Positions 1 through 23,373 of a stretch of 23,373 nucleotides of DNA are shown here, piece after piece (within the stretch, counting starts at the first letter, position 1; every line of letters begins with the position of its first letter). Source of the stretch: a virus (lineage: Duplodnaviria > Heunggongvirae > Uroviricota > Caudoviricetes); IMG/VR virus record IMGVR_UViG_2663763232_000005; one strand, written 5' to 3'. A program made the position numbers and the translations under genes. A model generated the notes under the pieces. That model did no database searches and was not told the origin of the DNA. It worked only from the letters and a program-made list of their open reading frames with translations.

Positions 1-377
1 TTGCATTTCAACCAGCCTGTCGGTGGTGTAGCTGAAGGCCACGGAACAGGCACACCAACAGGTAATGCAGAGCCTTCTCCCAAACCAAGGTTTTCGAGAG
101 CCGTTGGTACCGTGCCGTCCGATTTGATATCACCAAACGGATTATTGCGGCTTAACAGCAGTGCGCGAAGTGCGGTAAGCAACTGGTCATGCCGCCCCTT
201 CTCCAGGCTGGCACCGGATGCCTCCACAACGCTGCAAAGCTCCTCCTGCAACATGTCAAAGTAGTCATCATCCAGATCGGTGGCAGGCGTACCAGTCTGG
301 GGATTACCACGGGTAAAACCGTTCTTACCCGCGCCGAACTTATCCTTCTGCGCGGTTTTCGTGTCTATACGATGCAT
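1..377 (-). CDS. Tail fibre protein, N-terminal constant region (partial; gene continues beyond the left edge of the window)
   Basis: Manual translation of the minus strand from ATG at 377..375 gives [47 protein letters not shown]...[25 protein letters not shown] with no stop before position 1. Not in the ORF track because it has no stop in the window. Sits immediately after the gp48-like gene, where Mu-like phages encode the tail fibre. Family assignment is from memory. Confidence 0.65.
75..100. other. hix/gix-like site-specific recombination (DNA invertase crossover) site inside the tail-fibre gene
   Basis: 26-bp imperfect palindrome TTCTCCCAAACC-AA-GGTTTTCGAGAG around a central AA dinucleotide. 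It closely resembles hixL (TTCTTGAAAACCAAGGTTTTTGATAA) as I remember it. It lies about 95 codons into the tail-fibre ORF, the expected constant/variable junction. Confidence 0.55.
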
Positions 378-380
378 GGA

Positions 381-965
381 TTACTCCGGATATTTAAAAA
401 TTACGTAGGTATGCGACGGGCAGAGTTTGTTAAGCACACACTCGACAACGGTGTCGCCCCAGATACGCAGTGCGGAATCACAGGGATCGCCACATGTCAT
501 CCAGGTGGTGTTGGTGGCGGCTGGCATGTTGACCTGCCAGTAATACCGCCATTCCGGCGCATTCACCGCGTCAGTACAGGCCGATGAGCAGGTGAACGTG
601 CTTTTGTCGTATCGCGTGATGGTGGCGTCTGGTCTGCCCAGGGCAGCAAGCTGTGCAAGGTAAAAATCCTCATTGATGCCGCCCGCCAGGTTAACCTTCG
701 CATCCAGTCGTTGCTGACGCTGGCGAAGGGTCTGTGTCCCTGCGGGAATACATTCATCCGGCAGGCCGCACAGACGCTCCCAGCGATTTATCAGTTCGGT
801 GGTGGTGCGCGGATCCAGCTCCCGCATCAGGGCATCCGCACGCTGATGAACGCGGGTTAATGACGGTGCCGCACCGGCAATCGCCGGATCGCTGGCTGAC
901 CACGCCGGACCGGGGGGCAACAGTGCCGACAACAGACGGATGTAATCATCGTTTGTCACGTCCAT
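381..965 (-). CDS. Tail/baseplate protein, Mu gp48-like (YmfQ-like)
   Basis: 194-aa ORF immediately downstream of the baseplate J-like gene with a 10-nt overlap. Position and size match Mu gp48 family; assignment by synteny and remembered similarity. Confidence 0.65.
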
Positions 966-2014
966 GAAATCGTCCCCAGTACCGCCAGTTCATTTTTTGC
1001 AATGGAGATATTGTCTGCCGGTGCAAACAACTGATGGCTGTATTCCCCGTTCGCACCGGAAATCGCTTCACTGATACGTGACACCTTCAGTTCTCCCTGC
1101 GGATAACCATCACGCAGCAGGAACGAACGCAACTCGGCGGTGATGGCAGCCCGTATTTCCGGTGTGTCCGGCGTCACGCGGATATGAAAATCCACCGTAT
1201 GCGCCACCGGCCTGAACACATACAAATCAGAGCCTGCCACCGGGGCCAGTGGCTCAATGTGTTGTCTTGCCGCCGTTTCCGTTGATTCTTCCGGAATGGG
1301 ATTAATCAGGTCACTGCCGGCAATCATCACACCGACAGTTCCCGTTCCCATCCAGTGACGGTATGTCCATGCGCGGGTAATGCCGGGCACTTCTTTAGCC
1401 CAGACGACATAGTCCCCGTCAGCCCCGCCCTGCGGCGTCCAGTAATACCGCTCAATGACGCGGGCGCGCCACGTTTCCAGATCTTCTGTATCAAATCCGC
1501 CTGTCAGGGTGTCAGTCACACCGGAAGACGGCAGACCATTCACCGGCGTGACCAGGATTAATGCCGTACCATCGTCAGCGTTACCGACCGCGCCTGCAGT
1601 TGAGCAGGCGATCGGCACGCGCAGGACACCACCGGAGCTGGTTGCATCGGCAGTTGCCGTGTACTGAACCAGGTCATCGCGCTGAATAACACTCCCGGCA
1701 GTCACCTTCAGGCCATCGCTGACACCTTCCCAGCGCATATACCCGCTGGCAGCCGTGGCCCCCTTGCGCGGACACCGTTTCATCGCAGCATGTCGCGCCA
1801 GCCAGGACTCATCGCACAGGTCAGGCAGCATGTTCATTGCCAGATAATCGATGTAACCGTAAACCGTATGCAGCGCCGCCGCATACACCTTTGCCCGCAC
1901 GTCTTCATCCATGCGCCGGAGCGTGTCGCTGACGTCCAGCCTGGCGAATAAATCGTTACGGAGCATACTGATATTTTCTGCCAGCGTCGGGCGCTGAAAT
2001 TCACTGTCCGCCAT
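956..2014 (-). CDS. Baseplate J-like protein (Mu gp47-like)
   Basis: 352-aa ORF in the baseplate gene string, overlapping its neighbours by 10-14 nt, which suggests translational coupling. Confidence 0.7.
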
Positions 2015-2429
2015 GCGTTATCGCACTCCACAGATCATCAAAAGAAATCATTACCGGTCCGTCACGACGCCAGAGAGTGATACTGTTACCCAGCTCATTA
2101 ATCCCGGTGCGGCGGATATCCAGATCAATACGGGACACCACGCCGTCATCAATCATCCATTGCAGGCATTCGCGGATATACCCCCTTACCGTCTGCACCA
2201 GCTGATTGGTCAGTTTGCTGCGCTGAAGCAGCCACAGTCGGGAGCCGTAACGGTCATTCTGTACCGCAGGCCAGGTATCCCCCCACCATCCCATCGGGAC
2301 GTCGGCGTTGTCATCAGGCTCCGCCCGCCGCCAGGTAAACAGGGAAATCACCACGGCGCGGGTCAGCGGATCCAGTTGTGCGCTGGCGCAGGTGCGTTTA
2401 CCGTTCACCGTCAGCCACAGTTCCATCAT
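2001..2429 (-). CDS. Baseplate protein (Mu gp46-like)
   Basis: 142-aa ORF; its start overlaps the stop of the upstream gene by 4 nt (ATGA-type). Assignment by synteny. Confidence 0.6.
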   Translation of the reverse strand: MMELWLTVNGKRTCASAQLDPLTRAVVISLFTWRRAEPDDNADVPMGWWGDTWPAVQNDRYGSRLWLLQRSKLTNQLVQTVRGYIRECLQWMIDDGVVSRIDLDIRRTGINELGNSITLWRRDGPVMISFDDLWSAITHGGQ

Positions 2430-2974
2430 GCCTCCATCGCTTTATCAGGTTTGTCGGTGTTACTGCCCTGACCGTTCTCTCTGTGACGATGCCCGTTATA
2501 GGCAAGCCGCATCGCTGACATGGTGGTACCGCCGGAGTCGCACAGGTCTTTCACCTGTCCGGTCACTTCCAGGTCCATTTCAAAACGTGCTCTGGGCGCA
2601 TTGCGAAACGTGATCGTTTTACCTGCACCGTCCACCACGATCCCCTCCCGGGTCAGCGTCACAGACTGCCCCTGATCGTCATAGACAGCCACCTCACCCG
2701 TCTGCAGCCCTTTCAGGCGGTAGCGCCGGTCCGACACCGTAACAACCACCGCATGAGAACGGTCGCCATCCGGAAACAACACCACCGCTTCCGCACCGCT
2801 GTTTGCCCTTGCGGTAAAACCGTAGGGTTCAAGATGTTCAACCCCGGCTTTGGGTTCACCGGCAATCAGGGACACATCCACGGTCTGACATTTCGTGGCG
2901 GCACTGATGCTTTTCACCACTGCCCGCCCAATCAGGCCGAGGAGTTGTCGCTGCATGGCTTCAATCGTCCTCAT
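2426..2974 (-). CDS. Baseplate assembly protein V / central spike (Mu gp45-like)
   Basis: 182-aa ORF, size and position typical of gpV-type spike proteins; 1-nt overlap with the upstream gene. Confidence 0.6.
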   Translation of the reverse strand: MRTIEAMQRQLLGLIGRAVVKSISAATKCQTVDVSLIAGEPKAGVEHLEPYGFTARANSGAEAVVLFPDGDRSHAVVVTVSDRRYRLKGLQTGEVAVYDDQGQSVTLTREGIVVDGAGKTITFRNAPRARFEMDLEVTGQVKDLCDSGGTTMSAMRLAYNGHRHRENGQGSNTDKPDKAMEA

Positions 2975-4053: not shown

Positions 4054-5378
4054 TGCACTGGCACCTTCAGAGGGATCACCGGCACAAAGCCGGGATGCGT
4101 AATGGCATTACGCCGGATAATGTCCGCGTCACGCGCCGCGTTATCAAACCAGGTCGCCGCCAGCACCAGCGCGGGTAAAACCTCATCCGGCGTGCGCTGA
4201 ATGATCCGTGCAGACTGTTCAAGGCGCGTGTTGATATCCGCATTCAGATCTGCTTTCACCCGGCGCAGCGCCAGAAACAGCGCATCACTGGTTGTACGGG
4301 ACAACTCCTTATCAATTGCCGTATTCAGTGTGTCGCGAATGTCAGTCAGTTCTTCCCACGTCGGCAGATCAACCGTGTTTTTCACCGCCGGTGCATTGTT
4401 CAGTGCCGGATGCGTGACGGAAGGCCAGCCGGTGCTCTGCGCAGCTGTTGTTGCCTGCCCCACTGCGGCATCCTGCACCACCGCGGAAGTTGTTGGCGCA
4501 GGCAATCGGGTGACGGCATACGCCGCTTCGCTGATTGCGGTCGTACGAAGGGTGCTGGCAACCACGTTACGCTGCTGCGTCGCCGTAGCGGTGGTTTTAC
4601 TGTCCGTTTTCCAGACGCCGCGCGGTTGCAGATCGCTGCCGAGGCTGACACCGGAAAGCGTTTTGATCATGGTGACCAGGTCGCTGGCGTTACCATAAAG
4701 GCGTTTCCCGGTACGCCACATTTTCTGCACCTGCTCAACGAAATTTTTGCCTGACGATGGCGGCGGCAGAAGTACCGAGATATCCCCCTGCAACAGCCTG
4801 GCGGCATCCGATACGGCAGAATCCACCACTTTCATCGCATCAGAAATATACCCAAGCATTGTGCCGGCATTACCGACGACGTCGTTCTGCACAAAATCTG
4901 CCACGCCATCGATACTGAAACCACTGAAACTGTCACTGATGCAGTCATCCAGTGCAGAACAGGATGACATCAGCGTCTGCGCCGTCGCCGCACCTGATGT
5001 GGGGTAAGAGAGTTCTCCCGCTTCGACAAACTTCAGGTCAAAGCGGACAATACGCCCTTCACTTTTCGATGTGCTGACCCGAACTTCCCCATCAACACAG
5101 ACTTTCAGCTCACCATATGTCGGGTGGACAAGCGTGCCGGGACCGGGTTTATTCAGCGCTTCAATCAGGCGATCGCGCTGGTCAAAGCAGTCATCTCCCA
5201 CCACATAAGCTGTGATGGACGGGCGGAAAGTGACTTTTCCCAGATCTTCGGTATAGGGTTTGTCGCGGTTCGGATATTCGTGTGTTTCCACACGACGGCC
5301 GGTTCCCGCACTTTCTTCTTCAACCTTAAACGGCACACCTCGAAATGACGCATCCTGAAGCCTGTCTTTCCACGTCAT
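4050..5378 (-). CDS. Tail protein, DNA circulation protein family (Mu gp43/N-like)
   Basis: Track ORF starts at GTG 5384; the ATG at 5378 (MTWKDRLQDASFRGVPFKVEEE...) is preceded by GGAG 5 nt upstream and is the likelier start. About 442 aa, first gene after the tape measure/moron as in Mu-like tails. Confidence 0.7.
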   Translation of the reverse strand: MTWKDRLQDASFRGVPFKVEEESAGTGRRVETHEYPNRDKPYTEDLGKVTFRPSITAYVVGDDCFDQRDRLIEALNKPGPGTLVHPTYGELKVCVDGEVRVSTSKSEGRIVRFDLKFVEAGELSYPTSGAATAQTLMSSCSALDDCISDSFSGFSIDGVADFVQNDVVGNAGTMLGYISDAMKVVDSAVSDAARLLQGDISVLLPPPSSGKNFVEQVQKMWRTGKRLYGNASDLVTMIKTLSGVSLGSDLQPRGVWKTDSKTTATATQQRNVVASTLRTTAISEAAYAVTRLPAPTTSAVVQDAAVGQATTAAQSTGWPSVTHPALNNAPAVKNTVDLPTWEELTDIRDTLNTAIDKELSRTTSDALFLALRRVKADLNADINTRLEQSARIIQRTPDEVLPALVLAATWFDNAARDADIIRRNAITHPGFVPVIPLKVPVQ

Positions 5379-5439: not shown

Positions 5440-5970
5440 TTAGCGAGTCAGAAACAACGAATCTTTATACTTTTGCTGTTGTTCATTTAAATACTTAGCT
5501 GTTTCATCGCTGGCAAATGGAAATATTACCGTATTTTTAGGCATGGTAATTTCTTTTTTGTCCAGCGTCAGAGTAAACATAGGAACATACTGAGCAGAGT
5601 AACGCACCGCAGAAACGAGCTCTAGTTTAGACTCTTCAATAACACTTAAATTATCCAGGCTAACTTTCTCTTCATCTTTTTTCTTTGACGCATTTAAAGT
5701 TTTTATTACTTTATTTAATTTCTCCTGAAAATCCTCCTTAAAGTTTTCAGGATTGCCGTCGACAACAAGAATCTGTTCACCCTGATTATCTGGAAAAATA
5801 ATCTTTGCACTTATCAATTTATTTTCTTTATAAACATCACCAAGTTTTATGGCTCCTCCAGATAACTGAATAATATGTTCATCTTTAAAGGAGATGTTGC
5901 CAGAGATTATGAGAGATGAAAAAATAGCCGCTGCTCCAAGAATTACACTTGCTGTGATATAGCCTTTCAT
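5440..5970 (-). CDS. Moron-encoded secreted or membrane-anchored protein of unknown function
   Basis: 176-aa ORF, markedly AT- and Lys-rich compared with the flanking GC-rich tail genes. N-terminus MKGYITASVILGAAAIFSSLIISG looks like a signal peptide or signal anchor with no lipobox Cys. Bracketed by a promoter-like element upstream and a strong terminator downstream. Confidence 0.6.
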   Translation of the reverse strand: MKGYITASVILGAAAIFSSLIISGNISFKDEHIIQLSGGAIKLGDVYKENKLISAKIIFPDNQGEQILVVDGNPENFKEDFQEKLNKVIKTLNASKKKDEEKVSLDNLSVIEESKLELVSAVRYSAQYVPMFTLTLDKKEITMPKNTVIFPFASDETAKYLNEQQQKYKDSLFLTR

Positions 5971-6061: not shown

Positions 6062-7894
6062 CTACCAAAATCGGGTATAGCCAACATCGTGATTTATATC
6101 AATGCCACTGGAGCGTGTTTCCGTAACCCGCATACCTGGTGGCATATTTATAAATGATACCTTGATCTCACCATCAACTTTTGGCGCGGTAGCTTTATTA
6201 ATCATGAAGGGATTCGGGCCTGTGGCATCGGAGGCGTTGTTTGCCTGAGCCGGATCCACCGCCGGATAAGGAGTGTATCCCCGTGCCGGTATCCCCGTCC
6301 CATAAGCATCATAAGCACCCGCGCCCCACTGCGCCGAGTTAATGGTATCGACCGTGTCACCGGAACTGTCGGTAAACCATTCAATAATCGGCTTCAGCTT
6401 ATCCCACATATCCTGAAACCACTTAACAACCGGTCCCCAGTTATTGATCACCATCCCCAGCGGCGACCAGGCAAAAACCTTCTTCAGAAGTTCCCGGCCA
6501 GCCTCAAAATAAGGACCAATGGTTTCCCAGAGCTTCTTGAAATAAGGTCCGACAACATCCCAGTTAGTGATAATTAATCCCGCAGCCAGAGCAATCGCCG
6601 TCGCAATCATGCCAATCGGCGTCATCGACATGATCCTGCTGACAATACTGATGGCACTGCCCACGCCCATCAATCCCAGTTTCAGAATCGCAAGACCGGC
6701 AGCAAGCCCGACGACGCCGCGAATAACCCGGGGATTTTCATCCGCAAACTTCGTGAATTTTTCCCCCAACTCCCCCAGCCATTGCGTGATATTTTTAGCG
6801 TCACCAGAAAATGCGCCGCCAATAGCTGCAAGACCGTTAGTTGCGGTCCCCGTCATTGCCTCCCACAGGTTGGACAGCGTACCAAGCTGTGCCTGAACAC
6901 GTTTATTCAGGCTGGCCTGTTTATTCATCTTCTGCTGGATCTGATCGTAACCATCCTTTCCTTTATCGATCAGAGCATTGACCACCTGAAGGGTTTCGGC
7001 ATCATCACCAAATATTGCCTTAAGTACACCTGTTCGCTTAACGTCGGTCAGTTTTCGCAGCTTTGCCAGTTGCTTAAACATGTTATCAAGACCGCCAAAA
7101 CTCCCTTTGCCATCAGTAAAATCGAGCTGTACCCCGAGTTTCTGGCGGGCCATGATTTTATTGACGTCCCTGATTTTCTTAACGCTTAATCCGGACTGGA
7201 TAACTTTTCGCAGGGCATTACCTGCCGACTCCCCGTTCATCCCCATCTGATCCATCATGACACTGATGGGGGCAAGACTCTGTGCAGCCTGAAGACCGTC
7301 CTTATTCACCATCTTCAGAACAGAGCTGGTTTTAGTGAAGAATGACAGCATGTTGGTGTCGTCAACGCCCAGATAAAACGCCTTCTGAATTGTGTCGAAC
7401 AGCCCCATCATGTCTTCTGAGGCCGTTCCGGTAGCATCCTGCATCTTTGCTGCAAACTCGGCAGCCGCTTCCGGTGTTTTTTTCAGTTGTACCGCAAGAT
7501 AAGCTGTCGCTTTACCCACACCACCCAGAATGTTTTCTGCCGGGATCCCCTGACGCACCAGCATCTGCATCATGTTCTGGAAATCAGCCGTTGTACCGGG
7601 TAGCTGGTTACCCAGGCCAATAGCCAGTTTATTGATGTCCTGAAAGCTCTTTCCAACCTCGCCGTTCGCATCCATCATGGCGACTTTCAGCCCGGTAGCG
7701 GCGTTTTCCTGATTGGCATAAGATTTCAGGGAAAGCGTCAGCCCCGCTGCCAGTCCGCCACCAAGCGCCAGCCCACCCTGTGACGCTTCTTCCGCCTGGC
7801 GTTTAAATCCCCGGATTTTCTTTTGCATTTTCGACAGCGCGGGAGAAAGCCTGTCGACACCGGTGATCAACGCCTTAAGCTCAAATTCAGCCAT
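6062..7894 (-). CDS. Tail tape measure protein
   Basis: 610-aa ORF directly downstream of the frameshifted chaperone pair; Gly/Ala-rich hydrophobic central stretch and helical-looking N-terminal part, typical of tape measure proteins. Confidence 0.8.
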   Translation of the reverse strand: MAEFELKALITGVDRLSPALSKMQKKIRGFKRQAEEASQGGLALGGGLAAGLTLSLKSYANQENAATGLKVAMMDANGEVGKSFQDINKLAIGLGNQLPGTTADFQNMMQMLVRQGIPAENILGGVGKATAYLAVQLKKTPEAAAEFAAKMQDATGTASEDMMGLFDTIQKAFYLGVDDTNMLSFFTKTSSVLKMVNKDGLQAAQSLAPISVMMDQMGMNGESAGNALRKVIQSGLSVKKIRDVNKIMARQKLGVQLDFTDGKGSFGGLDNMFKQLAKLRKLTDVKRTGVLKAIFGDDAETLQVVNALIDKGKDGYDQIQQKMNKQASLNKRVQAQLGTLSNLWEAMTGTATNGLAAIGGAFSGDAKNITQWLGELGEKFTKFADENPRVIRGVVGLAAGLAILKLGLMGVGSAISIVSRIMSMTPIGMIATAIALAAGLIITNWDVVGPYFKKLWETIGPYFEAGRELLKKVFAWSPLGMVINNWGPVVKWFQDMWDKLKPIIEWFTDSSGDTVDTINSAQWGAGAYDAYGTGIPARGYTPYPAVDPAQANNASDATGPNPFMINKATAPKVDGEIKVSFINMPPGMRVTETRSSGIDINHDVGYTRFW

Positions 7895-10319: not shown

Positions 10320-10880
10320 TCAGGAAGGAAGGGTTATTTCGGTGTGATGTTCTATATCGCCGTCAGGCCCGTTACCGGGCTCGAGATAATCAACATCAAT
10401 CGCCAGCGTTTGCAGTTCATCCAGACTGTTCAGATCATCCTGCTGGCGGGTATCGTCTTCAGTCAGCTCGCTAATGACCGAAAAATCGAACTGATAAATC
10501 AGCTCATGACGATTCAGATCCAGCAGCGTGCCGCCGTCATAGGTAATCGGGTTACCGCACGCCTCCGGGTTCCAGCCCAGCAGAGCCTTAAAGAGCATCT
10601 GCCGAACATCGTCCACCACATCATACGAGGCAAACTGACCGCGCTCATCACGCCCGTTACTCAGTATGACAACCACGGAGAAACCCTCTTTCAGCACCTG
10701 CCAGTAGTCGGTCTGGCTTTTGTTTTCTCCCGGAGAATCATCACCCGGTACAACATATGCCGCCGGGAGTTTCAGCTTTCCGACCTCCGGCAGATTTTTG
10801 AACTGGGCCGCGCCTGCAACCCGGTTTTCAAAATACGGACAGCGGGCACGCAGTGCAGCAATAACAGGCGTCAGTTTCAT
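10320..10880 (-). CDS. Hypothetical virion/tail protein (Mu-like gp37 position)
   Basis: 186-aa acidic ORF in the co-directional structural gene string between the head-completion genes and sheath; 4-nt overlap with the upstream gene. Function by synteny only. Confidence 0.5.
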   Translation of the reverse strand: MKLTPVIAALRARCPYFENRVAGAAQFKNLPEVGKLKLPAAYVVPGDDSPGENKSQTDYWQVLKEGFSVVVILSNGRDERGQFASYDVVDDVRQMLFKALLGWNPEACGNPITYDGGTLLDLNRHELIYQFDFSVISELTEDDTRQQDDLNSLDELQTLAIDVDYLEPGNGPDGDIEHHTEITLPS

Positions 10881-11383
10881 CTGTGTCGTCGCTCCGGCTT
10901 CAGTGATTTACGCAATTCCCGCGCCAGAAAATAGCGTGTCCAGCTGCGGTTCTTTTCAAGAGTTTCCACCATGAAGTTATTACGTGGAGCCAGTCGCCAG
11001 CCGCTGCCACCGGATGCACCACGATGATGACTACGACGACGTTTTGCTCCTCCCCGGACACCAAAAAACAGAAACGCCGGATAGAAGTCACCAGAGATCA
11101 TCCGGTTCCCCTTCCCGTTGTGCTGGTTAGGGGCAATGCGTGTCATAAAACCGGCTCGCTTTTTACTGGCTCTCGGCACCATGTAACCAATCGAACGAGC
11201 CAGGCGTCCGGTCTGATAACCGGGGTTTTCACCCGGTGCCGACCGCGCACGGCGCATCACCAGCCGACGGGCATCACGCATATGACGCTGCCCAATCGTG
11301 ATAAACGCCCGCCGGACACGGGCGCGGTTAAAGCGCATCTCCGCGGGCTGCTGAACATCAACGTGAAAAAAGGGAGTCGCCAT
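10877..11383 (-). CDS. Virion morphogenesis / tail-component protein (possibly HK97 gp10 family)
   Basis: 168-aa Arg-rich ORF containing TGRLARSI, which resembles the motif I recall for HK97 gp10-family proteins. Position is between head-tail joining genes and tail genes. Confidence 0.45.
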   Translation of the reverse strand: MATPFFHVDVQQPAEMRFNRARVRRAFITIGQRHMRDARRLVMRRARSAPGENPGYQTGRLARSIGYMVPRASKKRAGFMTRIAPNQHNGKGNRMISGDFYPAFLFFGVRGGAKRRRSHHRGASGGSGWRLAPRNNFMVETLEKNRSWTRYFLARELRKSLKPERRHR

Positions 11384-12090: not shown

Positions 12091-12291
12091 TCAGCCCTCT
12101 TTACTGGTCGTGGCTTTTTTCTCTTTTGCCGCTTTACTGCTTTTTGCACTGATTCCGCGCTCTGCTAACCCGGCCTGAAGTGCAATCTCCTGCACCCGGG
12201 CAGGAAGCGCCCCGTCGTCATACTCACCGGCCCGAATGACCTCAACACGCATACCGTCCGGTGACCATTTCAGATCTTGTTTCAGGATCAT
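12091..12291 (-). CDS. Small hypothetical head-module protein
   Basis: 66-aa ORF with a Lys/Ala-rich tail, between the major capsid and connector genes, ending 3 nt before the next start. Confidence 0.4.
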   Translation of the reverse strand: MILKQDLKWSPDGMRVEVIRAGEYDDGALPARVQEIALQAGLAERGISAKSSKAAKEKKATTSKEG

Positions 12292-12313
12292 GATTCTTCA
12301 CCCGTCAGAACAG

Positions 12314-12333
12314 GGGGCGCGGTTCCGCGCCCC
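12314..12333 (-). promoter_or_regulatory. GC-rich hairpin immediately 3' of the major capsid gene (no U-tract)
   Basis: GGGGCGCGG-TT-CCGCGCCCC, a near-perfect 9-bp GC inverted repeat 8 nt after the capsid stop, with no T-run on either strand. Confidence 0.45.
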
Positions 12334-12340
12334 TGAATGA

Positions 12341-13546
12341 TTACGCCGCTGCAATCTTCAGCAGTTTGATGGCCTGCGAATCGACCAGCATCCCGCCGGT
12401 GCGCTTGGTGGTATAAAAACCGACAAACGGTTTATTGGTGTACGGATCGCGCAGAATGCGGGTGCCGATACGGTCAACGATGGTGTAACCCCGTTTGAAG
12501 TTACCAAATGCAATGGCTTTCGCATCAGCGGCGATATCCGGCATCTGTTCGTTTTCAGCGATACCGTAACCCGCCAGAGAGGACGGCTGCCCCAGTTCCA
12601 GCCCCGGACGCCACAGATAGTTACCCTCGGTGTCTTTCAGCAGACGGATGGCAAACAGGCTGTTGTTGTTCATCATGAACTTCGCGCCAGTGCGGTGTGC
12701 CTTTCGCAGCGTGTAAATCAGTTTGATAATGGCGTCTGCGGTCACCGCAGTCGCGTCGCCGGATACAATATGCTGAAGTTTGCCGAACGCCCGGACCTTG
12801 TCGGTTTCATCCGTGGATTCATACGCCAGGAACCCTTTCGGCTTCTTGGTACCATCGCCGGTGGTAAAGGCAATTTCTTCCTGTTCGGCAAATTCGGTTG
12901 CCAGCTCGCTGTTGATCCAGGCCTCCACGTTGAAAAAGGCATCATCCAGCATTTTCTGGGTGGCCTGCGGGTTACCGTAGATTTCCCCCATGAAAGGTTC
13001 AATCAGCCCCAGTTTTGAGGTGGCAGTCTGGGAACGCGCGTCAGTCTCGCCAACCCATCCGGAAGCCGTGCCGCCCAGATTCACCAGTTTTTTGTAGTCG
13101 GAACCGCCAACGGTGATCACCGTGGCTTCCTGGCGCATCACCACTTCATCTTTCAGCAGGGTCAGAATGTTGCGATCCAGCGCTTCCGGCACGGCGTAGC
13201 CACCGTCTTCATCGGTGCCCACCTGTAATGCCTTGCGCTCCAGATCGCGCAGACCATCTTCACGGCCTTTACGCAGGAAGCCCACAAACGCTTCTTTATG
13301 CTCGGTGGCCAGTTTATTTTGCGCACCACCTGCCGGACGTTTCAGCTCAAGCAGCTCTTTTTCAAGATCGCTTTTGAGGTTTTCCAGCTCGCTGAGTTTC
13401 CCGTTCAGGGTTTCCACCTGCCCGGCAAGTTTGCCTTTTTCCTGCTCAATCGCATCCACGCGCTTGTCGTTCTTTGCTTTGAAGTCGTCAAACTTCTGCT
13501 GCAGCTCCTGCGCGACCTGTTCGACATCTTTAATATCTACCGCCAT
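12341..13546 (-). CDS. Major capsid protein, HK97 family
   Basis: 401-aa ORF whose N-terminal region (DIKDVEQVAQELQQKFDDFKAKNDK...LSELENLKSDLEKELLELK) looks like a coiled-coil delta domain; follows the prohead protease and portal genes. Confidence 0.85.
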   Translation of the reverse strand: MAVDIKDVEQVAQELQQKFDDFKAKNDKRVDAIEQEKGKLAGQVETLNGKLSELENLKSDLEKELLELKRPAGGAQNKLATEHKEAFVGFLRKGREDGLRDLERKALQVGTDEDGGYAVPEALDRNILTLLKDEVVMRQEATVITVGGSDYKKLVNLGGTASGWVGETDARSQTATSKLGLIEPFMGEIYGNPQATQKMLDDAFFNVEAWINSELATEFAEQEEIAFTTGDGTKKPKGFLAYESTDETDKVRAFGKLQHIVSGDATAVTADAIIKLIYTLRKAHRTGAKFMMNNNSLFAIRLLKDTEGNYLWRPGLELGQPSSLAGYGIAENEQMPDIAADAKAIAFGNFKRGYTIVDRIGTRILRDPYTNKPFVGFYTTKRTGGMLVDSQAIKLLKIAAA

Positions 13547-13560
13547 CGTATTTCTCCTGA

Positions 13561-14247
13561 TTAGAAGTTCAGATTTTTCAGTGCATTCAGTGCAGAGCCC
13601 ACATCCTCAGCGTCGCGCAGGGACAGTGCGCCATAGCCCCCGGCCATGAATGCTTTGGCCTGGGTACGGGAGAGTCCGACATCACGCAGGACTCTTTCGA
13701 TTTTTTTCTGTTCGGGGATTTCCCCGCGGGCCAGTGCGTTCTTGACGTCGCTGATCCGCGCCTCGTCGTTAGACGGGAACGTCACCAGGCTGACTTCCCA
13801 GAGGTCGATTTCTTTCAGCAGAAAGGCTTCTTTCGTCCGGTCGTATTCCCAGTCCTTCAGGACGTACCCAATAGAAAGGCCGGTTAACGAACCGGCCTTC
13901 ATGTGTGCATGTGCGCGTTTTGCCAGGGGATCATCATCAATGAGCAACCGCCCCCTGACGTAAAGCCCGACATCGTCTTCCTTCATTTCGGTGTAAACAC
14001 CGATGGGTTCATCCATGCGGTGCTGCCAGAGCAGCGCAGGTAACGCTTTTCGGTCACTCCACGCCCGCAGGGAAGCAGCAAATGCCCCGGACATCACCAC
14101 ATCATCGTGGCTGTCCTTTACACCAAAGACGGAGCCATACCCTTCAAACTCACCGGAGTCACTGACAGATTTCAGACTCAGCGGTACATCAAGACGTTGT
14201 TTCGTCTGCATTGGCGTTATCCTTCTGCTTACCGGCTTTACTGCCAT
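13561..14247 (-). CDS. Prohead protease, HK97 family
   Basis: 228-aa ORF between portal and major capsid; N-terminal region (GYGSVFGVKDSHDDVVMSGAF) matches what I recall of this protease family. The true start may be an internal Met, because the track ORF overlaps the portal end by 59 nt. Confidence 0.8.
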   Translation of the reverse strand: MAVKPVSRRITPMQTKQRLDVPLSLKSVSDSGEFEGYGSVFGVKDSHDDVVMSGAFAASLRAWSDRKALPALLWQHRMDEPIGVYTEMKEDDVGLYVRGRLLIDDDPLAKRAHAHMKAGSLTGLSIGYVLKDWEYDRTKEAFLLKEIDLWEVSLVTFPSNDEARISDVKNALARGEIPEQKKIERVLRDVGLSRTQAKAFMAGGYGALSLRDAEDVGSALNALKNLNF

Positions 14248-15430
14248 CGGAGGGTTTCGTGGTCATGTTCATCGGTGTGAGATAGACATTCCCACCGGGA
14301 CGCGGATTCATATCTTCCAGGTCGCGGCAGTCATTGGGAGAGTAAATTCCCCAGTTAATCCCGGTGGCGTAGGCTTCAAAATGGGACTTCATATCCCCGC
14401 GCAGTAACGCCCCGGCGTTAAATTTGGCGTAATAAACGCCCTGCTTACTTTTTCGTACCAGTCCGGTGTTGATCCGCTGTTCGATGCGGGTCAGATACGG
14501 CACCAGTGAATAGTTGATAAATCCGAGCCCCAGTTCTTCGATATTGTTGAAGGTGGCGCGATCGGTGTTCTGCACCATGTGCAATGGCACCCGGAACAGA
14601 CGACAGATTTCTTCAAGCTGAAACTTGCGGGTTTCCAGGAACTGGCTGTCCTCTGCGTTCAACGCCATCGACTTCCAGTCCAGCCCCATCTCAAGGATCA
14701 TCGGGCGGTGAGCATTGCCAAGCCCGGTGTGACGCTCCTCAAAATCTTTCTTCAGGCGCTCATAAGCCTGATCCGACAGCGTCTGCTCTGTACGCAACAC
14801 ACCCGACGTCACCGCGCCATTGCTGAACAGTCTGGCCCCGTGCTCTTCGGTCGCTGCCGCCAGCGATATTGCCTCGCGGGCATAGGCGATGGGATTCAGT
14901 CCCACCAGACCGTCCAGCGTCAGCGTGCGCACATGCCAGATATCTTCCTGGCTCAGTACATCCGTGGAGCCGTCCGGAAATGTGACCTGGTAAACCGGTT
15001 CCCAGCTACTGTTAAGCTTCGGTACCACACAACCGGGATCGACGGGCAGCAGTTCAGCCACTTCGCCAAATGCTTTCACTTTGTAGGCGTAAAAATTTCC
15101 CCTCAGACACAGACAGGTGACCACCAGCTCCCAGAACTCCTGCGGCGTCATATAGCTATTGGGATGCGTGGAGATCAGTTTATGCAGACGTTCGCCGGTG
15201 GCTCTCTGCTTCAGGCTGCCGTTCAGGTGATACAGATTGCAGGGCAACATCCCGACCGACTCTGCCAGCACTCTGACGCAGGAAAAAACCGCCGTCAGTC
15301 GCATGGCTCGCTGACTGCTGATCTGCTTTCCGGTATAGGTGTCGTAGGACAACCCGATGGCATCCGCCAGCTCTGCTGGCGTGGTCACCGGTGCGTCACT
15401 TTTTCGTTGAAATAATCCCGAAAAGAACAC
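14189..15430 (-). CDS. Portal protein, HK97 family
   Basis: 413-aa ORF downstream of terL, size and position typical of the portal. The annotated start is a GTG overlapping the stop of the small upstream ORF. Confidence 0.85.
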   Translation of the reverse strand: MFFSGLFQRKSDAPVTTPAELADAIGLSYDTYTGKQISSQRAMRLTAVFSCVRVLAESVGMLPCNLYHLNGSLKQRATGERLHKLISTHPNSYMTPQEFWELVVTCLCLRGNFYAYKVKAFGEVAELLPVDPGCVVPKLNSSWEPVYQVTFPDGSTDVLSQEDIWHVRTLTLDGLVGLNPIAYAREAISLAAATEEHGARLFSNGAVTSGVLRTEQTLSDQAYERLKKDFEERHTGLGNAHRPMILEMGLDWKSMALNAEDSQFLETRKFQLEEICRLFRVPLHMVQNTDRATFNNIEELGLGFINYSLVPYLTRIEQRINTGLVRKSKQGVYYAKFNAGALLRGDMKSHFEAYATGINWGIYSPNDCRDLEDMNPRPGGNVYLTPMNMTTKPSDGSKAGKQKDNANADETTS

Positions 15431-21300: not shown

Positions 21301-21330
21301 GTACAAAAAAACCGCTCGACGGCGGGTTTA
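21301..21330 (-). terminator. Candidate late-operon terminator (tR'-like), weak
   Basis: On the minus strand a short GC stem (CCGC-CGTCGA-GCGG) is followed by seven T. The stem is only 4 bp, so strength is uncertain. Confidence 0.3.
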
Positions 21331-21482: not shown

Positions 21483-22415
21483 ATGACTACTACAGCCACT
21501 TCCGCGCCACTAACTAAACAAAAAAAAATGCGTATCGGTTTCTTCCAAAGCTCCTCAGGAACGAAGTCAACTACATCAAATGCACAACTTGCATTTGACA
21601 ACATGTATACAACCATTGTTACACCTTCGCAAAATTCTTATACCGCTGAGTTTGATAAGAAAAAATTAAAGATTGTATTCTTAGAAAAAGACGCACAGGC
21701 GGAGTTCTATTTTGGTTATCTATCATGCTCTCGTGATGGTTTCCACTTACCTTATATTGGTGATGAAAATTGGGATGAGCACAATATTCCGTTAGATGAT
21801 AAAAAATATATAGTCGAACGCACTTATTTTATTTACTACTATAAGAAAGACATTCTTGTTTTATCTCAAAATCATTTAGGACCTAAAGTTTCCGATTTAG
21901 CATTTCTTTTATTCAATTTTTCTGAAGAAAACAAACCTGTAGCGTTTGAGGCAATTTGGAAAAAAGAAAGTGTAAAAGAACTACTTGAAACAGGAAGCAC
22001 TTTACGTAGCTGTGAAATTACACTCGCCGCTCCACGTAATTTTAGCGCAACGGATTATGACCTTTCGAATTCATTTTCCAAAAGTATGATTGAAATGATG
22101 GCTGGGATGGGCGGTTCGCATTTAAAACTATCACTTAGAGGTAGAGCATCGCAACGTAAATTAATCCGTGGTTATCTCAGTGATGAAGTAAAAAGTGGAA
22201 TAAAGGAATTAATAGAAAAAGTTCCTCACTTATTACGTAAAGCTAATGTCACTGAACCTAAAAATACTCATTCAAGGAGTCTTCTCAATCAAGTTCTGAT
22301 CAGTGAAAAAAACATTAACACAAAAGATGGCTACGCAAAAGAAACAGATGTGCGTACTGCCTTGATCAGTGCTAAAATTGAACATGGTCAGTATTTAAAG
22401 CAATATGAAATCTGA
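21483..22415 (+). CDS. Hypothetical soluble protein, first gene of an AT-rich two-gene cargo cassette (candidate defence/exclusion sensor)
   Basis: 310-aa ORF on the strand opposite to all phage late genes; AT-rich and Lys/Asn/Ile-rich. AAGGG lies 8 nt before the ATG. No motif I recognise; SSSGTKST is not a canonical Walker A. Confidence 0.6.
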   Translation: MTTTATSAPLTKQKKMRIGFFQSSSGTKSTTSNAQLAFDNMYTTIVTPSQNSYTAEFDKKKLKIVFLEKDAQAEFYFGYLSCSRDGFHLPYIGDENWDEHNIPLDDKKYIVERTYFIYYYKKDILVLSQNHLGPKVSDLAFLLFNFSEENKPVAFEAIWKKESVKELLETGSTLRSCEITLAAPRNFSATDYDLSNSFSKSMIEMMAGMGGSHLKLSLRGRASQRKLIRGYLSDEVKSGIKELIEKVPHLLRKANVTEPKNTHSRSLLNQVLISEKNINTKDGYAKETDVRTALISAKIEHGQYLKQYEI

Positions 22416-22429
22416 TCTTATTTTTAAGG

Positions 22430-22882
22430 ATGATGATTATGCTTATTAAAGTTTTAATTAACATAGTTATCAGTGGGCTGTTAGCTTGGGTGCTTGGGAA
22501 ATACCTAGCGCCTATGGCTCACTCTGATATCTTAAGTACAGCCGGAGTGTTATCTACGGTGGCAGGCATTTTGTTTGGTTTTGTATTGGCCGCTATTTCC
22601 ATCTTCAGTTCTGCAAGTTCAAGTACTGATGGAATTATTTTTGCTTTAAAACAAAACAAGATTTTACCTAAAATTATTCATAACCTGTTATCTACGGGAG
22701 TTACCTTAATATTAGCATGTATTTTCCCGCTGATAGCAATGTTTATAAATGAAAAAATCACCATTACCTCTGTAAGACTTGATTTCGCCCTAACCTTATA
22801 TGGTTTCTCGACCCTGATCGTATCAATAGTTTCATTTGCAAGTACCTGGAGAAAAATAAACTGGATATTACCCCACATATAA
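22430..22882 (+). CDS. Hypothetical integral membrane protein with four predicted TM helices, second gene of the cassette (candidate effector)
   Basis: 150-aa ORF starting 14 nt after the upstream stop. AAGGA precedes the start; the ATG at 22439 has the best spacing. Four hydrophobic segments at roughly residues 5-27, 38-62, 78-106 and 118-140. Confidence 0.6.
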   Translation: MMIMLIKVLINIVISGLLAWVLGKYLAPMAHSDILSTAGVLSTVAGILFGFVLAAISIFSSASSSTDGIIFALKQNKILPKIIHNLLSTGVTLILACIFPLIAMFINEKITITSVRLDFALTLYGFSTLIVSIVSFASTWRKINWILPHI

Positions 22883-22925: not shown

Positions 22926-23288
22926 TTAATCCATATCTAAGCTAACATTTAGAATAGCTAGACAACCTTCTATAAATCCCTCAGCCATCTGTATCTCAAT
23001 GCGTATTATTTTCTCATCCTTTTTGCGAGCTTTAGCGAGCTTTCTTTTAGAGATACCGTATAGGTAATGGGCAACAAGAAGCGAGTGTTCTTCAGGTCTT
23101 TTTTGCTTTAGACGAGCAAGACAACCTTCAATAATTAATGCATCACTATCTGAACAAGCCTGACGTGTTTTGCTTGTATAGGGAAGAAGCCCTTTAAACC
23201 CAGCAGCTATAGGCGAATAGTCTACCCCAGAACTATCACTCGCCGCCCATGCACCCCAACGATCCAGAACCATCTGAATATCACGCAT
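22926..23288 (-). CDS. Late-gene antiterminator Q (phage 82 / QuuD-like family)
   Basis: Track ORF runs to 23366, but the ATG at 23288 is preceded by GGAG 7 nt upstream and gives MRDIQMVLDRWGAWAASDSSGVDYSPIAAGFKGLLP..., which resembles the QuuD-type Q N-terminus as I recall it. Confidence 0.65.
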   Translation of the reverse strand: MRDIQMVLDRWGAWAASDSSGVDYSPIAAGFKGLLPYTSKTRQACSDSDALIIEGCLARLKQKRPEEHSLLVAHYLYGISKRKLAKARKKDEKIIRIEIQMAEGFIEGCLAILNVSLDMD

Positions 23289-23373
23289 CAACTTTCTCCA
23301 CAAAATCAGGCCAGCATGACCTGCTCCCCGTTGATTAGTACACCCCGATGTTAGTAATGTCTTCATAAGCCAC

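Follow-up and report, generated by a model that had tools for sequence, protein, structure and literature searches.

A Pin-type crossover site, pixL, in the tail-fibre gene at the contig end of an SfV-like prophage

Does the short palindrome-like element in the truncated tail-fibre gene at the left edge of this caudoviral contig mark an invertible host-range module, the remnant of one, or just a conserved stretch of fibre coding sequence? The stretch analyzed here (hereafter, the window) comprises draft contig LLYM01000104.1 in full (GCA_001484485.1; 23,373 bp), which terminates 74 bp past the element. Its left edge is hence an assembly end rather than a biological boundary, and any module lying beyond it is invisible in this genome. 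An exact 40-mer from the left end has no match in the species-representative genomes, and the best full-length match among complete E. coli genomes is 97–98% identical. An initial annotation had predicted, from the element, an invertible segment with an inverted partner site and an invertase beyond the edge.

The long ORFs of the late region all lie on the minus strand and are those of a myovirus prophage in which a Mu-type tail is combined with an HK97-type head. Read from the right end of the window, they encode the Q antiterminator, a methylase, the lysis proteins, terminase, portal, protease, capsid, sheath, tube and tape measure, followed leftward by a DNA-circulation gene, baseplate genes of the Mu gp44–48 types and finally the fibre gene. 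This backbone is ~97% identical to that of the Shigella phages SfI, SfII, SfIV and SfV and of many E. coli prophages. Directly upstream of the fibre gene is a YmfQ/Mu gp48-type baseplate wedge gene (381..965, minus strand), named ymfQ in the relatives; the Pfam domain Phage_Mu_Gp48 was recovered on the identical YmfQ-type protein in ten loci. The fibre gene itself (1..377, minus strand) is represented by its 5' part of 125 codons, which starts with the ATG at 375–377, is still open at base 3 in translation and runs off the contig end. Its positions 89..377 show 93–100% nucleotide identity to genes annotated as 'phage tail protein' or stfP, which again lie downstream of ymfQ in the relatives, identifying it as the orthologue of e14 stfP/ycfK in an SfV-like prophage with a Mu-type tail.

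The element at 75..100, to which no strand is assigned, reads TTCTCCCAAACCAAGGTTTTCGAGAG in the window. Its inner half-site TTCTCCCAAACC (75–86) and outer half-site GGTTTTCGAGAG (89–100) match at 9/12 positions as an inverted repeat around a central AA dinucleotide (87..88), the same degree of symmetry as in hixL (9/12) and more than in gix (7/12). The initial description of a 26-bp imperfect palindrome around AA is hence accurate. The likeness to the hix, gix and cix sites that it proposed also holds, with 20/26 positions identical to hixL, 18/26 to gix and 20/26 to cix, and with the core AAACC-NN-GGTTT identical in the window site and all three. Here, the gix sequences were read from the Mu genome and cix from the annotated P1 record, and hix, gix and cix agree with the table of Din-family recombination sites in PMC3241671. 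That likeness was, if anything, understated, since the element is identical at 26/26 positions to the published pixL listed in the same table, and at 26/26 positions to the site inside stfP (ycfK) of K-12 e14. The resemblance is, thus, not a superficial one.

We then scanned both strands of the window with the Din-type degenerate pattern TTNTCNNAAACCNNGGTTTNNGANAA, allowing up to three mismatches and using shuffled sequences for the expectation. The element is the single match, with one mismatch where the shuffles lead one to expect 0.01; no second crossover site was found by this degenerate-pattern scan on either strand of the 23,373 bp. Within the gene, the site spans fibre codons 93–101, close to the approximately 95 codons first estimated, and its central dinucleotide falls in codon 97 (Leu). 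The inversion repeat used in the K-12 experiment, CCTTCTCCCAAACCAA, corresponds to window 73..88 and overlaps pixL, while the P1 record annotates the cix crossover at the position equivalent to window 87..88. Strand exchange at Din-family sites takes place at two core bases (PMC12529663, PMC3241671, PMC4272514), and we place the putative point of staggered cleavage and strand exchange of the window site at its central AA (87..88). All the site-level features that define the Din-family Pin/pix class and that can be read in the window are present in it. On this sequence identity, we take 75..100 to be pixL, the fibre-proximal crossover site of a P-type invertible segment such as is found in e14/SfV-like prophages.

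The fibre gene changes character at this site. Codons 1–92 (101..377, minus strand) constitute the constant, promoter-proximal part, which is 93–100% conserved in all relatives and is kept whatever follows the site, including in SfV, e14 and the best overall relative (L016). Positions 1..74 (minus strand) hold the first 24–25 codons of the variable part, which we assign to an StfE-type C-terminus with a Collar domain. Pfam detects no family on the 125-aa fibre stub, and the assignment follows from a full-length homologue in the locus closest over 1..400 (L005), which is identical to the stub at 71/72 positions and whose complete fibre of 251 aa carries the Collar domain at residues 108–155. 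The same stub is 85–94% identical to the promoter-less stfE-type end that lies inverted beside pin in e14, L007, L011, L015 and L016.

Megablast alignments with SfI, SfII, SfIV, SfV and most full-length E. coli relatives start at window 73/74 and extend rightwards. Conversely, fibres of unrelated phages (P2-like phages, HK97, HK106 and Klebsiella phages) align only over window 1..~99. The proposal that the site lies at the junction of the constant and variable fibre parts is borne out by these breaks. The comparison with L016 resolves the junction base by base. Against its near end, identity is 27/30 on the constant side and 27/28 over 73–100, and drops to a random-level 19/72 beyond the site; against the reverse complement of its far, invertase-proximal end, the variable side matches at 61/72, the inner half-site is identical and the outer side matches at only 5/30. 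Such a switch in identity between the two ends is what a flip of the segment, with exchange at the midpoint of the site, would produce. Judged by these alignments, the window represents the state in which the Collar/StfE-type end is joined to the constant part and expressed, in the orientation opposite to that of e14 in the MG1655 reference (the 'StfP2' state of PMC12529663).

Citrobacter phage Omnitron (L004), from Citrobacter braakii, carries a stub 100% identical to window 1..86. In this phage, the stub adjoins a different outer half-site, and an inverted partner is found at a distance of ~1.85 kb (sites at 4199–4224 and 6075–6100). Different genera, therefore, have this variable fibre end in common exactly up to the crossover site.

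In the relatives, the region that the window lacks can be followed directly. The K-12 e14 order is ymfQ, stfP, tfaP, tfaE (opposite strand), stfE (opposite strand, promoter-less), pinE and mcrA, with an inverted partner, TTCTCCCAAACC-AA-CGTTTATGAAAA, located 1,797 bp from the first site and corresponding to the published pixR with its core AA. An e14-like plan is also seen in L016, L007, L011 and L015, although no invertase gene was called in L007. Within the segments, an alternative C-terminus of the fibre is accompanied by a pair of opposed tail-fibre assembly genes; the fibre ends match the Pfam families Collar and Gp53-like_C, and the opposed assembly genes match Caudo_TAP. Segment length ranges from 1,585 to 1,958 bp (median 1,842), and in 34 loci the invertase ATG is positioned 55 bp past the partner. 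The encoded invertase is a protein of 184 aa with a Resolvase domain (1.5e-51) and an HTH_7 domain, and the version from L016 shares 98% identity with PinE and 79% with Gin. In the window, no invertase is encoded (tblastn best E = 5.6).

At the far end of the segment, beside pin, the inner 14 bp of the site recur in inverted orientation, and there the outer half of the partner site falls outside any fibre reading frame. The stub seen in the window (1..86) is likewise joined to the constant part in L001, L002 and L005, and in e14, L007, L011, L015 and L016 it is inverted at the pin-proximal end, indicating that both orientations of the same module exist among close relatives. This is, as far as the alignments go, the pattern that inversion at the central AA predicts. 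The predicted module of segment, partner site and invertase is thus supported, in relatives that share the flanks of the window site, by comparative genomics.

The partial genome record of phage vB_EcoM-689R6 (L002, 1–2309) shows a different arrangement. Its fibre, at only 171 aa, has just a short StfE-type stub behind the constant part. The locus yielded no partner site, and pin and an mcrA-like gene are opposite in orientation to those of e14. This might reflect either a larger rearrangement or an artefact of where the record was opened.

These observations bear on the simplest alternative, namely, that the sequence is conserved as a fibre coding motif and has no role in recombination. The site is indeed coding, its motif is widely conserved in fibres, and Mu gixL, too, encodes a related NLGL motif. 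However, coding constraint does not account for nucleotide identity at 26/26 positions to a site that has been shown to recombine, nor for the inverted recurrence of the inner 14 bp beside pin with an outer half that lies outside the fibre frame; further, homology breaks at the site and not at a protein-domain boundary. We accord this alternative a negligible probability, and in its strict form, with coding constraint as the only cause, it is effectively refuted by the 26/26 identity, the inversion observed in K-12 and the per-base switch in identity.

The K-12 inversion is documented experimentally. The 1,797-bp e14 P segment inverts at the CCTTCTCCCAAACCAA / TTGGTTTGGGAGAAGG repeats under the action of PinE, PinQ or PinR (PMC12529663, 2025), and both segment orientations coexist in K-12 cultures, as established by sequencing and PCR (PMC4272514, 2014). 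In the e14 remnant, inversion of the P segment is reported to give rise to fibre chimeras that block superinfecting phages (PMC12529663, 2025).

Drawing these lines together, we consider it very probable that the pixL of the window is part of a Pin-driven P-segment switch that sets the fibre C-terminus, and with it the receptor specificity, in the source prophage. A serine invertase of the Pin family (Din subfamily) would bind pixL and an inverted pixR located ~1.8 kb downstream, cut both sites at the central AA, swap the strands and flip the intervening segment, with synapsis presumably depending on Fis and an enhancer. The flip would join the 96-codon constant N-terminus to either a Collar (StfE-type) or a gp53-like (StfP-type) C-terminus, with a separate assembly chaperone for each end, and would thereby change receptor specificity. 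For this genome, an active invertase, together with pixR and the remainder of the segment, would be expected on a neighbouring contig, where TTCTCCCAAACCAACGTTTATGAAAA should lie between the gp53-like end and a 184-aa resolvase-family gene. The enhancer step draws on the relatives, where nucleotides 19–90 of pinE match the annotated enhancer of P1 cin at 79% identity; as this barely exceeds the 73% over the whole gene, it is weak evidence for dependence on Fis and an enhancer.

How commonly the site, its partner and the invertase go together was scored in loci encoding this fibre N-terminus, 80 from IMG/VR and 78 from species-representative genomes. Twenty-eight of the IMG/VR loci have a window-type stub and enough sequence to be informative. 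Among these, 17/28 have the partner with a full-length invertase, 8/28 the partner with a truncated invertase, 2/28 a full-length invertase with no partner at up to one mismatch, and 1/28 neither; thus, the partner (pixR, core AA) is present in 25/28 and a full-length invertase in 19/28. These frequencies are rough, as the IMG/VR sample may hold many near-clonal E. coli prophages. Extrapolating from such relatives, the source genome is highly likely to carry the partner pixR, and retention of an intact invertase in cis is favoured with somewhat less assurance. The degraded versions seen among relatives, namely the lone site of SfV, truncated pin genes and segments disrupted by insertion sequences, make an intact switch in this genome probable rather than certain.

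One such degraded version offers an alternative of some weight: the window might hold a true pixL whose cis invertase has been truncated or lost, or whose segment has been disrupted by insertion sequences, leaving the fibre locked in the Collar/StfE-type state unless an invertase acts in trans. Besides the truncated invertases in 8/28 window-type loci, the relatives that best match the left end of the contig point in this direction. The best match over 1..2500 (L001) retains the e14-like plan with a truncated pinE and a fibre pseudogene, and L005 retains the segment but has IS5 and IS26 in or beside it and no pin. Moreover, since PinQ and PinR invert the e14 segment in trans (PMC12529663), Pin-family invertases of other prophages could replace one that was lost. 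On the other hand, the full-length invertase in 19/28 window-type loci speaks against a relic, as does the remainder of the window, whose head, tail and lysis genes are uninterrupted and give it the appearance of an intact prophage. We regard such a locked relic as unlikely, though a realistic contender, and retain the Pin-driven switch as the preferred reading.

Truncation of pin is itself recurrent, being found in 13/80 IMG/VR loci. In L032, L033, L044, L048, L050, L068, L082 and similar loci, the gene is reduced to its first 44 codons with pixL and pixR intact, which suggests one common deletion lineage in which the switch depends on trans-acting invertases.

A more extreme decay is exemplified by SfV, in which the identical 26-bp site lacks both partner and invertase; a single tfa gene comes next, then the gtr genes and int. 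By analogy, the window could hold a lone fossil site with no partner and no segment beyond it, just one assembly gene and then the prophage end. Loci with neither partner nor invertase amount to 12/80 in IMG/VR, and L102, L103, L110 and L111 are of the same kind. However, the lone sites are almost all followed by a gp53-like stub, with the Collar-type stub of the window occurring in only 1/12, and it is this window type that goes with a partner in 25/28 loci. Beyond the site, identity between the window and SfV is only 18/72; with a Collar/StfE-type stub matching L005 at 71/72, the window falls outside the SfV-type fixed-fibre class. We, therefore, consider an SfV-like fossil very improbable here.

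The place at which the contig ends also deserves comment. Like the window, 7/80 of the IMG/VR contigs end within 150 bp beyond the site, which suggests a recurrent breakpoint of short-read assembly. Mixed orientations of the segment in the culture may have caused the break; yet, a break with this as its only cause would be expected at about position 74, and the contig runs 74 bp further. No less likely is that the source genome has a second fibre gene sharing a repeat with this one, given that the fibres of other prophages are homologous over window 1..99. The bolder reading, that active flipping of the switch, in an SfV-like prophage that seems intact, left the culture mixed in orientation, or that the site is a hotspot of module exchange, has, in our estimation, a rather slim chance of being correct. 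The latter part of this reading, that unrelated phages may preferentially exchange fibre modules at the site, derives from the fact that P2-like, HK97-like and Klebsiella phage fibres become homologous within its outer half. If active flipping were true, inversion of the P segment could serve a full-length phage in two ways, setting its host range and forming superinfection-blocking chimeras.

It has been clear since the 1980s that Pin/Gin/Cin-type invertases switch fibres; the e14 P segment with PinE was reportedly first described by Plasterk and van de Putte in 1985. The pixL in the window is, accordingly, an ordinary and already described feature of the known Din-family Pin/pix fibre switch, and there is little new biology in it; the practical value lies in annotation. 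The fibre gene at the contig end is best annotated as belonging to an invertible host-range module, of which it holds the constant part and pixL, with the fibre specificity read from the window (Collar/StfE type) as one of two states, and breaks at this fibre site are to be expected in short-read assemblies.

Among the characterized systems, the e14 P segment with PinE is closest. It has the same 26/26 site, the flanking ymfQ and a fibre constant part that is 95% identical over 289 nt, and it agrees with the relatives of the window in the partner, segment size and gene content, with the best relative having a 98% identical invertase. The difference lies in what surrounds it: e14 is a 15-kb remnant without most structural genes, whereas the window holds a full SfV-like late region with head, Mu-type tail and lysis genes. 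The comparison also shows the K-12 e14 P segment to be what remains of a module that complete SfV-like prophages still commonly carry.

The tail module of SfV, SfI, SfII and SfIV (orf20–orf22), in turn, shares with the window a backbone that is 97% identical from position 74 up to 2500 or beyond, as well as an identical 26-bp fibre site, but lacks a partner, a second fibre end and an invertase, and instead has a fixed gp53-like end, one assembly gene, gtr and int. The relationship between e14 and SfV is argued here from our own alignments. In SfV (L178), the perfect 26-bp pixL lies at 4502–4527 inside orf21, unaccompanied by partner or invertase; Pin-family invertases encoded by co-resident prophages could still act on it, for instance in module exchange or deletion.

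The Mu G segment with Gin (gixL/gixR; S-U / S'-U') follows the same logic and occupies the same place downstream of the gp47–gp48 baseplate genes. Gin is 79% identical to the invertase of the relatives, and its 26-bp site has the AAACC-NN-GGTTT core found in the window. However, gix matches the window site at just 18/26 positions with GA in place of AA as its core, the G segment measures 3 kb, its junction is at codon 169 of S against codon 97 here, and the variable parts are unrelated. The P1 C segment with Cin (cixL/cixR) has the core AA, a 20/26 match, inversion that swaps the fibre C-terminus and an enhancer inside the invertase gene, and differs in its 4.2-kb segment, a constant part of about 450 codons and a P1-type virion. 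Salmonella Hin/hix shares the recombinase subfamily and site architecture (hixL 20/26), but Hin flips a promoter outside fibre genes rather than alternative coding ends.

A second lineage of invertases, 187 aa in length and 56% identical to PinE, 53% to Cin and 51% to Gin, is found in L006, L008, L010, L015, L043, L057 and L058. It adjoins a partner with a different outer half-site, AA-CCTTTCAAATAT, whose counterpart is a pixL-type site within the same constant part of the fibre. The partners in L006–L013 were missed at up to seven mismatches over 26 bp and were found by a scan with the inner 14 bases. In L006, L008 and L010, the sites are at 10866–10891 and 14090–14115, with the invertase at 14175–14738, a segment of ~3.2 kb and a fibre of 510 aa. 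In L009, L012 and L013, the sites are at 10866–10891 and 13444–13469, and the second fibre end and chaperone are replaced by sopE (12282–13004), coding for a type III effector with the SopE_GEF domain, inside the invertible segment. This sopE segment likewise adjoins the 187-aa invertase, in an SfV-like prophage.

Away from the fibre gene, the window has two further variable regions. Just downstream of the Q antiterminator gene (22926–23366, minus strand) is a two-gene cassette (21483–22415 and 22430–22882, both plus strand) on the strand opposite to the phage late genes, coding for a 310-aa DUF6731 protein and a 150-aa protein without a Pfam family. PADLOC returned no match for either of these proteins. 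Homology to the best relative stops at 21328, marking this region as a variable slot for accessory genes, and the genes at 21483–22882 possibly constitute an uncharacterised accessory or defence cassette. The second region is a 176-aa ORF without a Pfam family (5440–5970, minus strand), located between the tape-measure and DNA-circulation genes; as the relatives have a PH-domain protein or ORFs of 164/170 aa at this position, it represents a second variable slot, in this case within the tail module.
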